Below, in pieces: positions 78 to 3,322 of a stretch of 25,719 nt of DNA. The stretch is from Candidatus Competibacteraceae bacterium (GTDB lineage Bacteria; Pseudomonadota; Gammaproteobacteria; Competibacterales; Competibacteraceae). Position 1 is the stretch's first letter. Every line of letters starts with the position of its first letter. Position numbers and translations under genes: made by a program. Below the pieces are notes generated by a model. It was not told the origin of the DNA, did not search any database, and saw only the letters and a list, made by a program, of their open reading frames with translations. The DNA lies in NCBI GenBank assembly GCA_039807355.1, contig JBDHRB010000001.1, positions 1 to 25,719 of the forward strand. Direction: 5' to 3'.

Positions 78-356
78 TCGAACACGTATACGGTTCTTTT
101 CGATCCTTGATGAGACAGCGCAAAGAAACAAAGATTATCGCGGTGGCTAACCATGAGGGCGGTTGTGGCAAGACGACGACCGTGGTGAACCTGGCCGCAG
201 AATTTTCCAAAATGGGTTTATCGGTTCTCGTGGTCGATGTAGATCCTCAAGCTAACGAATGAAAGGGACTTCCCCGAGCCGGTCGCCGTGCGGCGAGCGG
301 CAACGCGTGCCAAGATGGGGTAGCGAATCTCATCAACGGACTCGGGAGGGGAAATC

Positions 357-1373
357 ATGGCTATTGTGTACGTCGGGATCGATCTCGCCAAGAACGTGTT
401 CGCGGTGCACGGGGTGGACGAGCACGGCAAGCCGGCCCTGGTGCGGCCGAAGGTCGCGCGCGATAAACTGCGCGAGCTGGTCGCGGCGCTGCCGCCCTGC
501 ACAATCGGCATGGAAGCCTGCTCGGGCGCCCACCACTGGGCGCGGCTGTTCGGGGATCTGGGCCACCCGGTGCGGCGGATGGCGCCGCAGTTCGTCGCAC
601 CGTACCGGTTGAGCGGCCAGCGGGGCAAGAACGACGCGGCGGACGCGGCGGCGATTGGCGAGGCGGTCCAGCGACCGAACAGGCGGTTCGTGCCGATCAA
701 GAGCGTGGACCAGCAGGCGCGGCTGGCCTTGCACCGCACCCGACAAGGCTTCGTCGAGCAGCGCACGGCCACGCTCAACCGCATCCGGGGGCTGCTGAGC
801 GAGTTCGGCGTCGTACTGCCGCTCAAGGCGGCGACGGTGCGCCGCGAGGCGGCGGCCGGCCTGGAGGCGTTGCCCGGCTGGGCGCGGTTGGCCGTCGGCG
901 ACCCGTTGGACGAGGTGCGCCGGCTGGACGAGCGGATCGCCGAGTATGATCGACACCTGGTTCAACTGGCTCGCGAGGACGAGCGGGCACGACGACTGAT
1001 GCGGTTGAGCGGCGTGGGCGAAACCACTGCCACCGCCTTGTTGGCGACCGTCGGCAACGGGCACGACTTCCGCTGTGGCCGGCAGTTCGCGGCCTGGCTG
1101 GGGCTGGTGCCGGGCCAGCGCAGTTCGGGCGGCAAGACCCGGCTGGGCCGGATCACCAAAACCGGCGACCCCTACCTCCGAACCCTGTTGATCCTGGGCG
1201 CCCGAGCCGTTCTGGCCCTCGCCAAAACCAAGACCGACCCCATCAGCCGCTGGGCGGTGGCGCTGGAGCAACGCCGAGGTTATTGGAAAGCGGTCGTGGC
1301 CGTCGCCGCCAAGAACGCGCGCTTGGCTTGGGCCGTGCTCCATCATGGCGAACGCTTCGCCCTGCCGACCTGA
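357..1373 (+). CDS. IS110-family transposase / bridge recombinase (DEDD RuvC-like N-domain plus Tnp_20 C-domain)
   Basis: GIDLAK, MEAC and KNDAAD (DEDD residues); GLVP..SSGGK catalytic Ser motif; 338 aa. Confidence 0.96.
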   Translation: MAIVYVGIDLAKNVFAVHGVDEHGKPALVRPKVARDKLRELVAALPPCTIGMEACSGAHHWARLFGDLGHPVRRMAPQFVAPYRLSGQRGKNDAADAAAIGEAVQRPNRRFVPIKSVDQQARLALHRTRQGFVEQRTATLNRIRGLLSEFGVVLPLKAATVRREAAAGLEALPGWARLAVGDPLDEVRRLDERIAEYDRHLVQLAREDERARRLMRLSGVGETTATALLATVGNGHDFRCGRQFAAWLGLVPGQRSSGGKTRLGRITKTGDPYLRTLLILGARAVLALAKTKTDPISRWAVALEQRRGYWKAVVAVAAKNARLAWAVLHHGERFALPT

Positions 1374-1494
1374 TGACAACAGCGCCAAATCGGTATCCAC
1401 CTCATCTCGCCCCCACGAGGAGAACCTTCTCACCCATCATCCCACCACCGAGTGACCTCTCGCGTTGATGATTCAGGTTGGACCTGTGCGGGGG

Positions 1495-1625
1495 GTGCCT
1501 GTTGAACTCTTGGAGGCCACTCCAGCGGTCCTCGACTAACGAATGCGGCTCCCGCGCGCGTCTTTCATCAGGGTCCGTGGCATCAAAGCCGCATCAATGA
1601 CCGGTTGTAGTTTCTCCAGTCCGCA
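1495..1625 (+). ncRNA. Putative bridge/seek RNA core in the IS 3' non-coding region
   Basis: Non-coding region downstream of the transposase with short matches to the element's own junctions: CTAACGAATG 1536-1545 equals 252-261; CTTTCAT 1562-1568 is the reverse complement of 259-265; TTGTAG 1605-1610 equals 1745-1750. Boundaries are approximate. Confidence 0.65.
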
Positions 1626-2416
1626 CCTGACTCGATACTCGGCGCCAGAGACGCTCTCCGGCGGTTTCACAACCCACTTCACTAAACGACGAATCGCCAC
1701 GCTTTTCGTCATGGCCGGCCTTTGCTTGACTTCCGGGGAAGCCCTTGTAGCAAGCCTTCACCTGGGTAAAATGCACCCGAGCGAGGTCCCGATCACTTGT
1801 GCGGAGTTGCTGCTCTCCGAGCTGGAGAAGCTGCCTTTTGCCATTCATGAGGATACCAACATCGAGGGCGTATCGCTGATCTACGGATCGCTGGCGTTGG
1901 GTAGAACGGAAGATGAATTGAGAGATACCACCCCAAGATCATCGGAAGAACTCCGGGCGAAGCTCCAACCGCTCGATGGACTTTATGACATCATCCTGAT
2001 CGACTGCCCTCCCAGCCTAAAATTGCTGACCAGTAATGCTCTGGCGTCCGCTACGCATCTGATTATACCGGTGGAATCTGGCTCTCAGTACGGTATGTAC
2101 GGCGTAACCGACTTGATGAAGCACATCGCTAAAATCCGCCGAATCAACCCTCGGCTTGAGATACTCGGCGCGCTGCTCATCAAGCATGATGAACGATTGA
2201 TGGTTAGCAAGCTCATCGAAAACATGGCGCGGGAACAGATCGGCAAACTCCTGCCCATCAAGATTTCCACCAGCACGAAGGTAAACCAGGCTGCCATGGC
2301 GCAAAGCAGTTTGCACGCGCTGGATCGTACCGCCAAAGTATCCCGCGAGTTTCGGCAGCTTGCTCACCAACTGGCAAAGGAGCTTGGCCTTAAGGGAGTC
2401 GCGGTGGAGGACAGCC

Positions 2417-3322
2417 ATGCCTAAGAATTTGAAGGCACTGCTGGCGAAGAAACTGGCCGAGAACAGCCAACGCCACGCGGATGCACGACAAGAGACCGAT
2501 TTTGATGTTGGGCGACATCACGTCAAGCTGTCCGTCGATGAGGTCGATCCAAACCCCTACCAACCTCGCAGGGTTTTTCCGCAGCAGGAATTGGAGGAAC
2601 TGGCGGCCTCGATTTCCGAGGTTGGGTTGCTTCAGCCCATTTCCGTTCGACAGATTCGTGACCGCTATCAGATCATTGCGGGCGAACGCCGATGGCGGGC
2701 GTACAAGTTGCTTGGGCGTCCTGCTATCGAAGCGCTGATTATTCCCGTCGAAGAATCCGACATGGCCGTGCTTGCGTTGGTCGAGAATATAGATCGCGCG
2801 GACCTTTCGGACTACGAGATCGGCAAGGCCCTAAGACAAGTCGAAAGCTTATTTCCGACCCGAAAAAAACTTGCCGAAGCGTTGGGGATGAACCGAGAGG
2901 ACATGTATCGCTACTACGCTTTCGAATATTTCCCGGAACCGATACTTGCCAGACTTGACGCTAATCCACGCTTGCTGTCAAGGGCTGCGGCAGCGGACAT
3001 CAAACGGACAATGCAGTTGATCGATCCGCCATCGCTGGCGCTAGAGTTGTTGAATCGGGCTTGGGACTTGCTCGAAGCCGGGGTATTGGAACAGACCAAG
3101 CTCTCTAATTTTCTGCTAAGAGAACTGCGAATCTCCAAGGAAGAGAACGCACCAAGGTTCCATGAGGCCCACCAGACACTGGCTCGGGAGGGCAAGCCCG
3201 TTGGCTCCATTTCTCGCGACTCGAAGCACTTGGTCATAAAGCTGAAGATCGATGCGCTGAGCGACGAAAACGAAGCCAAGCTGCGGAGCTTCGTCGAACG
3301 GATCGCGTCAGGAGACTTGTAG
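2417..3322 (+). CDS. parB: ParB/RepB/Spo0J-family partition protein (plasmid/chromid type)
   Basis: PNPYQPRR, GLLQPI and IIAGERRWRA motifs intact; ALVENIDRADLS; central HTH. ATG 2417 overlaps the parA stop, with GGAGG upstream. Confidence 0.95.
   Translation: MPKNLKALLAKKLAENSQRHADARQETDFDVGRHHVKLSVDEVDPNPYQPRRVFPQQELEELAASISEVGLLQPISVRQIRDRYQIIAGERRWRAYKLLGRPAIEALIIPVEESDMAVLALVENIDRADLSDYEIGKALRQVESLFPTRKKLAEALGMNREDMYRYYAFEYFPEPILARLDANPRLLSRAAAADIKRTMQLIDPPSLALELLNRAWDLLEAGVLEQTKLSNFLLRELRISKEENAPRFHEAHQTLAREGKPVGSISRDSKHLVIKLKIDALSDENEAKLRSFVERIASGDL

Follow-up and report, generated by a model that had tools for sequence, protein, structure and literature searches.

A predicted two-loop guide RNA in an IS1111-group insertion sequence within parA and its relation to integron attC sites

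The element and the interrupted parA gene

The window, meaning the whole stretch of 25,719 nucleotides that was analysed, begins within a gene for a parA-type ATPase, and this gene is interrupted by an insertion sequence of the IS1111 group of the IS110 family, the defining features of which have been summarised (PMC11187229 and PMC11208160). The features at the locus are as follows.

107 to 256, forward strand: 5' part of parA (AAA_31 / CbiA / ParA, profile positions 1-43), with the left target ...GCTAAC at its end
257 to 1750, forward strand: whole IS1111-group insertion sequence, with ends as in relatives
263 to 276, forward strand: left subterminal inverted repeat AAGGGACTTCCCCG, 6 nt inside the end, read from the sequence and kept in relatives
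357 to 1373, forward strand: transposase (recombinase) gene, 338 aa, DEDD type (PF01548, E 1.4e-16; PF02371, E 1.2e-24)
1725 to 1730, forward strand: outward-facing -35 box TTGACT, read from the sequence, of which TTGAC is kept in relatives
1734 to 1746, forward strand: right subterminal inverted repeat CGGGGAAGCCCTT, 4 nt inside the end
1751 to 2424, forward strand: 3' part of parA (AAA_31 profile positions 72-177), with the right target CAAGCCTTCAC at its start

The parA frame breaks off after ...GAT CCT CAA GCT AAC (last base 256) and resumes at G1750/C1751 (GCA AGC CTT CAC ...). There is one G at each junction (G257 and G1750), one of the two being the 1-nt core of the target, and deleting 257-1749 in silico gives the exact parA frame, DPQAN-ASLHLG; the site reconstructed without the element reads AGCTAACGCAAGCCTTCACC. 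Since a parB gene (ParB_N domain, 2360-3322) lies directly downstream of the interrupted parA, the element has split a parAB partition operon.

Positions 257-1750 are an intact IS1111-group element of about 1.49 kb (the 1.5-kb class). As in the IS110 family generally, the transposase joins an N-terminal DEDD/RuvC-like domain (PF01548) to a C-terminal PF02371 domain with the motif GxxPxxxxS/TG, here GLxPxxxxSG at residues 249-258 (read GLVPGQRSSG), and insertion is site-specific, a long target duplication and terminal inverted repeats both being absent. Two features mark the IS1111 group: inverted repeats of 7-17 bp that are subterminal, lying inside the ends, and a longer non-coding region downstream of the transposase gene. 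Both are present: the reverse complement of the right repeat, AAGGGCTTCCCCG, matches the left repeat over 13 bases with one 1-nt gap, and the non-coding ends measure 100 nt upstream (257-356) and 377 nt downstream (1374-1750). The -35 box TTGACT and the hexamer TAGAAT (1748-1750 plus 258-260) are near-consensus with a 17-nt spacer and are contiguous only across a circle junction, predicted to read CCCTTGTAGAATGAAAGG, i.e. CCCTTGTA-G-AATGAAAGG; the predicted promoter would form only in a circular intermediate with the right end joined to the left end. Junction promoters are known in IS1111/IS110 elements (PMC11208158).

The same element occupies the same parA site, with 97.9% identity over 1705 bp, in a second metagenome contig (L094; JRYK01009808.1, reverse strand), so this is an established insertion and not an assembly artefact. 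Differences between the two copies cluster just past the stop codon, in non-coding 1367-1460, and the transposase of the sister copy has A93 where that of the window keeps D93. A metagenome search with the exact guides described below returned one true match, which was this same parA insertion, and two chance matches.

Because the host assembly contains a single copy of the element, target logos were taken from relatives. Scanning one genome per species turned up 80 loci, mostly in Burkholderiales, with transposases 55-93% identical; 56 of them had both ends, and these provided 45 distinct RNA sequences and 49 distinct insertion sites. The ends are GAATGAAAGGG...CCCTTGTAG in all complete relatives.

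A structured 3' non-coding region with two predicted guide loops

DNA similarity to the relatives extends about 255 nt beyond the stop codon, to approximately 1628, and then ends. The 3' non-coding region very probably encodes a bridge/seek RNA with two loops, which specify the insertion site and the element ends. The predicted parts are listed here.

1465 to 1630, forward strand: predicted bridge/seek RNA, the conserved structured 3' non-coding part (similarity to relatives; covariation)
1497 to 1500 with 1546 to 1549, forward strand: stem closing the target loop, 3/4 pairs compensatory (CG/UA/AU)
1502 to 1512, forward strand: long target guide UUGAACUCUUG, complementary to the right-flank top strand, 1751-1761
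1513 to 1533, forward strand: target-loop internal hairpin, stem GAGG (1513-1516) / CCUC (1530-1533), 4/4 pairs compensatory
1536 to 1545, forward strand: short target guide CUAAC (1536-1540), core G (1541) and AAUG (1542-1545), identical to the left junction
1562 to 1568, forward strand: donor guide CUUUCAU, complementary to the left end, 259-265
1572 to 1602, forward strand: donor-loop hairpin, outer stem GGUC (1572-1575) / GACC (1599-1602), inner stem 1577-1581 / 1588-1592
1605 to 1614, forward strand: donor guide UUGUA (1605-1609), core G (1610) and UUUC (1611-1614), UUGUAG being the right end, 1745-1750

The fold of the single sequence is no more stable than those of shuffles (z -0.2 and -0.8) and is uninformative, and the structure was therefore scored by covariation on an alignment of the 45 distinct RNA sequences, with 500 shuffles and slid partners as controls. 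Paired cells amount to 93.6%, compared with 85% in shuffles and 38-48% with slid partners, compensatory change is seen at 24 pairs, and 0/500 shuffles reach any of five measures. The abundance of G-U pairs assigns the RNA to the + strand. In the donor hairpin, the outer stem has one compensatory pair (UA to CG, 11 sequences) and the inner stem has 4/5, while the outer helix 1473-1477/1626-1630 also shows compensatory changes; the outer helices are partly invariant.

Some pairings compete. The minimum-free-energy fold favours a local hairpin, 1510-1515/1520-1525, which would hide CUUG, and is without the GAGG/CCTC stem. Pairing of GGAC 1480-1483 with GUCC 1619-1622 (plus the outer helix) is preferred over its pairing with GUC 1559-1561, which appears in the minimum-free-energy and RNAalifold folds; the GGAC pairs never vary. 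RNAalifold also proposes a helix 1466-1470/1566-1570 that is nearly invariant, with one compensatory change (in L066), and that overlaps the donor guide CUUUCAU. The conserved UUGAUG at 1465-1470 can pair in this way with CAUCA (1566-1570), a pairing that may represent a second, closed conformation of the RNA. The RNA region has no match in Rfam, and a promoter scan of the non-coding region gave no promoter-like site; the RNA may come from processing of the transposase transcript, or the junction promoter may drive its synthesis.

The original prediction, read from this sequence without relatives, had proposed two loops with a common order of reverse-complement guide, internal stem and same-strand guide. 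Its segments all lie where it put them (CTTG 1509-1512, GAGG 1513-1516, CCTC 1530-1533 and CTAACG 1536-1541 in one loop; CTTTCAT 1562-1568, GGTC 1572-1575, GACC 1599-1602 and TTGTAG 1605-1610 in the other; 1536-1545 as a 10-nt match to 252-261). Both of its stems covary, and its order in both loops is that of the published IS1111 seekRNA layout (PMC11187229), which the covariation of helices and of guides with flanks confirms here.

The long target guide is an 11-nt stretch that is gap-free and highly variable in the relatives. In the window its reverse complement, CAAGAGTTCAA, agrees with right-flank positions +1 to +11 (CAAGCCTTCAC) at 8/11, all other registers tried giving at most 3. The check that the original prediction had called for, covariation of guides with flanks in homologs, was run on the relatives. 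Long guides match their own flanks at a mean of 6.5/11 and permuted flanks at 5.3, with 0/20,000 permutations reaching the observed value, and the result is unchanged when each distinct guide contributes a single site. Lineages that have moved to targets other than attC match at 9/11 (L040) or 8/11 (L010, L035, L062, L067, and L074), and none of their flanks is matched equally well by the guide of another lineage. The closest relatives (88-92% identity) have the guide UUAGCUC with flanks GAGCTAA (L083 and L089), while the corresponding part of the window guide, UUGAACUC, suits GAGTTCA. Matches are poor (at most 4/11) in L007, L036, L087, and the L090 group. One fixed pairing register for all relatives was ruled out, as registers 0, -1, and -2 were found. 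In register -1 (L020, L033, L053, and L057) the guide lies one base nearer the crossover and the attC spacer is 1 nt shorter; in register -2 (the retargeted L010, L040, and L074) it lies two bases nearer, over the core G and the preceding C. Of the guide, 1502-1509 is the portion that discriminates, and it reads target positions +4 to +11.

The 25.7-kb window has exactly two copies of the 10-mer CTAACGAATG, one spanning the left junction (252-261) and the other at 1536-1545, against an expectation of 0.01. The short guide with the core matches the left flank with the core at 6/6. Like the left flank, it is nearly invariant in relatives, with rare joint changes (L010 TTAGC, L022 CGAAC, and L062 TAAT), and the agreement with its own left flank (4.65, permuted 4.34) is again reached by 0/20,000 permutations. 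The AAUG that follows is identical to the start of the left end; it is conserved without visible covariation because the left end hardly varies. The first loop has two guides, one for each side of the target crossover and each for a different strand.

These results modify the target-side guides first proposed. CTTG had been correctly positioned, but it is only the 3' end of the 11-nt guide 1502-1512. From the programmed target CTAAC(G)CAAG, the part CTAAC-G holds, but the right side is 11 nt, ideally CAAGAGTTCAA, and CAAG is particular to the parA site. Copies with the same CUUG adjoin TTAC, CCTT, CTTG, TTTG, TGAT, and TTCG, so CAAG is no general target feature. The caution that a 4-nt CTTG match is weak alone was justified, as the 4-, 6-, and 7-nt matches are each insignificant by themselves, with an estimated 0.6 to 3 expected by chance in the 377-nt non-coding region; the layout of these short matches is backed by covariation in the relatives.

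The second loop has guides for both element ends and is the donor loop. CUUUCAU and the left end change jointly in three lineages: L037 and L060 (both ATGGAAG) and L066 (ATAAAAG). UUGUAG is invariant across the relatives, as is the right end, and is uninformative either way. The UUU(C/G) after UUGUAG corresponds to the start of the usual attC right flank, and agreement of the 3-4 nt that follow GUAG with their own right flank exceeds that with permuted flanks (17 to 22 of 20,000, p ~0.001).

attC sites of relatives and the choice of parA

The left flank of the relatives has the consensus G-C-C-T-A-A-C, with C at -1 in 45/49 sites and A at -2 and -3 in 47/49, and the right flank tends to TTYGAGNTAAGCGGC. 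The relatives occupy integron attC sites of the form GCCTAAC-G-TTYGAGNTAAGCGGC...GTTAGGC, in which GCCTAAC is R'' and GTTAGGC is R'. Sites without the element fold as attC, for example GCCTAAC G TTTGAGGTAAGCGGC...GTCCGCTTGACC...GTTAGGC; under a strict attC test 22/48 sites pass, and more pass if one further mismatch is allowed. L003, one of two copies that are 93% identical, is also in an attC. At four loci (L059, L057, L053, and L045) a second copy of the element starts 40 to ~1000 bp downstream of the first, and the second copy in L059 is at CATAAC about 40 bp away, seemingly in the same attC.

The host assembly has 283 CTAACG sites, among which the parA site is the best at 8/11 with the long guide; no unoccupied site reaches this value. 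Four sites reach 7/11, and three of these are attC sites on contig C245 of the same genome (7.7 kb, outside the window), which carries an integron cassette array comprising at least five such sites. The three are of the type GCCTAACGTTTGAGTTCACCCGC, which fits the guides of the element; array sites read GAGTTCAC, and the host attC sequence is GCCTAACGTTTGAGTTCACC. By these sequences, the element is tuned to the attC type of its own host. The parA codons for QAN-ASLH mimic an attC site for both target guides. Since the host attC sites match the guides and the relatives lie in attC, parA is a look-alike site, which bears out the earlier suggestion of an attC-type IS1111 that had hit parA by resemblance.

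Proposed mechanism, alternatives, and comparison with known systems

By analogy with published work on other elements, the RNA would be made, bind the recombinase, and direct recombination. The DEDD recombinase would use the predicted RNA (~1465-1630, + strand) to pair the circularised element with its target. In the target loop, closed by 1497-1500/1546-1549, guide 1502-1512 would pair with the top strand right of the crossover and, after the internal hairpin 1513-1533, CUAAC with the core G (1536-1541) would pair with the bottom strand left of the crossover; AAUG (1542-1545) would continue the short guide and, being equal to the incoming left end, may act in a handshake-like manner. The donor loop would follow the same plan, with CUUUCAU (1562-1568) pairing with the left end, then the hairpin 1572-1602, then UUGUA and G (1605-1610), equal to the right end and continuing as UUU(C). 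The lineage is tuned to one attC end, GCCTAAC-G-TTYGAG(C/T)T(A/C)A, and the window copy landed in a mimic of it in parA.

An alternative is that the RNA is real but that this copy is a decaying, immobile relic, the guides of which are no working programme, so that the 8/11 match in parA is only historical. An old insertion is indicated by the identical parA insertion elsewhere at 97.9% identity, the assembly has one copy only, and the window RNA has C1546 in place of the A or G of the sister copy and relatives, a derived mismatch that breaks the U1500-A1546 pair in the closing stem of the target loop. This reading is nevertheless unlikely, as the transposase frame is intact with its conserved motif residues and D93, both ends and both subterminal repeats are intact, and two copies in another genome carry identical guides.

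It is far less probable that the protein itself recognises attC or its look-alikes, by sequence or by hairpin shape as integron integrases do, with incidental RNA matches and a non-coding region conserved for transposase binding, regulation, or end recognition. While the left flank CTAAC and the ends are nearly invariant, such that much of the match could be plain conservation, and several insertions have weak long-guide complementarity, the variable 11-nt segment follows its own right flank beyond every permutation. Moreover, lineages have been reprogrammed to non-attC targets at 8-9/11 (L010, L040, L062, L067, and L074), the rare changes in the short guide are accompanied by the identical change in the flank, and the parA site is coding DNA with no attC hairpin. 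That the copy of CTAACGAATG and the end-like segments are DNA relics of nested or tandem insertion or junction duplication rather than RNA parts is scarcely credible: a nested insertion scar could leave an exact 10-nt junction copy inside the element, and second copies do lie close by in the four loci named above, but the segment is at the same aligned position in 45/45 relatives regardless of their flanks, sits in a loop between covarying stems, and has no further element-end sequence (subterminal repeat) beside it.

With the two-loop guide RNA as the preferred reading, the nearest known systems are the guide-RNA-directed IS1111 elements that target attC, namely ISKpn4, ISPst6, and, by prediction, ISPa25 (Siddiquee et al. 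2024, PMC11187229). The ISKpn4 seekRNA has been shown experimentally to target attC (PMC11187229), and the IS1111-attC group goes back to Tetu & Holmes 2008 and Post & Hall 2009, as cited in PMC11187229. The present element has in common with the ISKpn4/ISPst6 group the transposase gene, the long 3' non-coding region, the subterminal inverted repeats, the preference for attC, and a segment complementary to the top strand 5' of one complementary to the bottom strand; in an ISKpn4 copy the same guide order can be seen by eye in the non-coding region (AACAAT ... TTTGAA). However, its transposase is 34% identical to that of ISKpn4, its ends are different, and its RNA is predicted from sequence. 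ISKpn4 inserts a few bases further into attC (GGCTTGAA-...-GAATTGTTAG) and in the opposite orientation relative to attC, whereas the present family cuts directly after TAAC of the R'' core. Transposase kinship and attC position thus both place the element outside the strict IS1111-attC group (the ISPst6, ISPa21, and ISKpn4 clade); it appears to behave like that group while belonging to a separate lineage.

The closest catalogued transposase is that of ISCARN32 (ISfinder), with 75% identity in a comparison over its first 79 residues; long peptide words are shared along its whole length, and it is in the same IS1111 subgroup. ISDar1, ISShdy1, and ISCARN111 are listed beside it (sequences from the source data of PMC11187229). 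In the literature searched, no attC preference, guide RNA, or other published work on the ISCARN32-like clade was found, and the lineage and its attC sub-site appear to be undescribed there. The guide mechanism has been known since 2024, and the element is a well-supported new example of it, not a new system or mechanism.

It is conceivable, at somewhat under even chances, that the ISCARN32-like clade is an independent attC-targeting lineage, opposite in orientation to the ISKpn4 group, that exhibits a design rule for IS1111 guides. If so, the short 3' guide with the core would set the crossover point, and the 11-nt 5' guide would read the attC L'' arm, tolerating a register slip of 1-2 nt and several mismatches; a guide as lenient as this would account for insertion into coding DNA that resembles attC, as at the DPQAN codons of parA. 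About 50 natural insertion sites show how long the guides are, in which registers they pair, which mismatches are tolerated, and what the handshake-like extensions look like, and this information could aid the design of IS1111-type bridge recombinases. Elements that seek attC can also knock out housekeeping or plasmid genes that mimic the attC core.

The IS621 bridge RNA (Durrant et al. 2024, PMC11208160; Hiraizumi et al. 2024, PMC11208158) shares with the predicted RNA two pseudo-symmetric loops, for target and donor, and a promoter across the circle junction. In both, a loop consists of a longer 5' guide, then an internal hairpin, then a short 3' guide with the core in it, and finally a few handshake bases that match the other DNA partner; in IS621 the handshake guides come after the 3' guide of each loop (PMC11208158). 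The RNA is 3' of the gene here but 5' in IS621, and the core is a single G here but CT in IS621. The DNA sides are also swapped, since here it is the top strand of the right flank that the 5' guide reads and the bottom strand of the left flank that the 3' guide with its extension reads, in line with a published statement that top- and bottom-strand matches come in opposite orders in IS1111 and IS110 elements. Further differences from IS621 are the long subterminal repeats and the position of the donor guides in a multi-branch loop closed by a long-range helix, an arrangement noted for many IS1111 members by Durrant et al. (PMC11208160).
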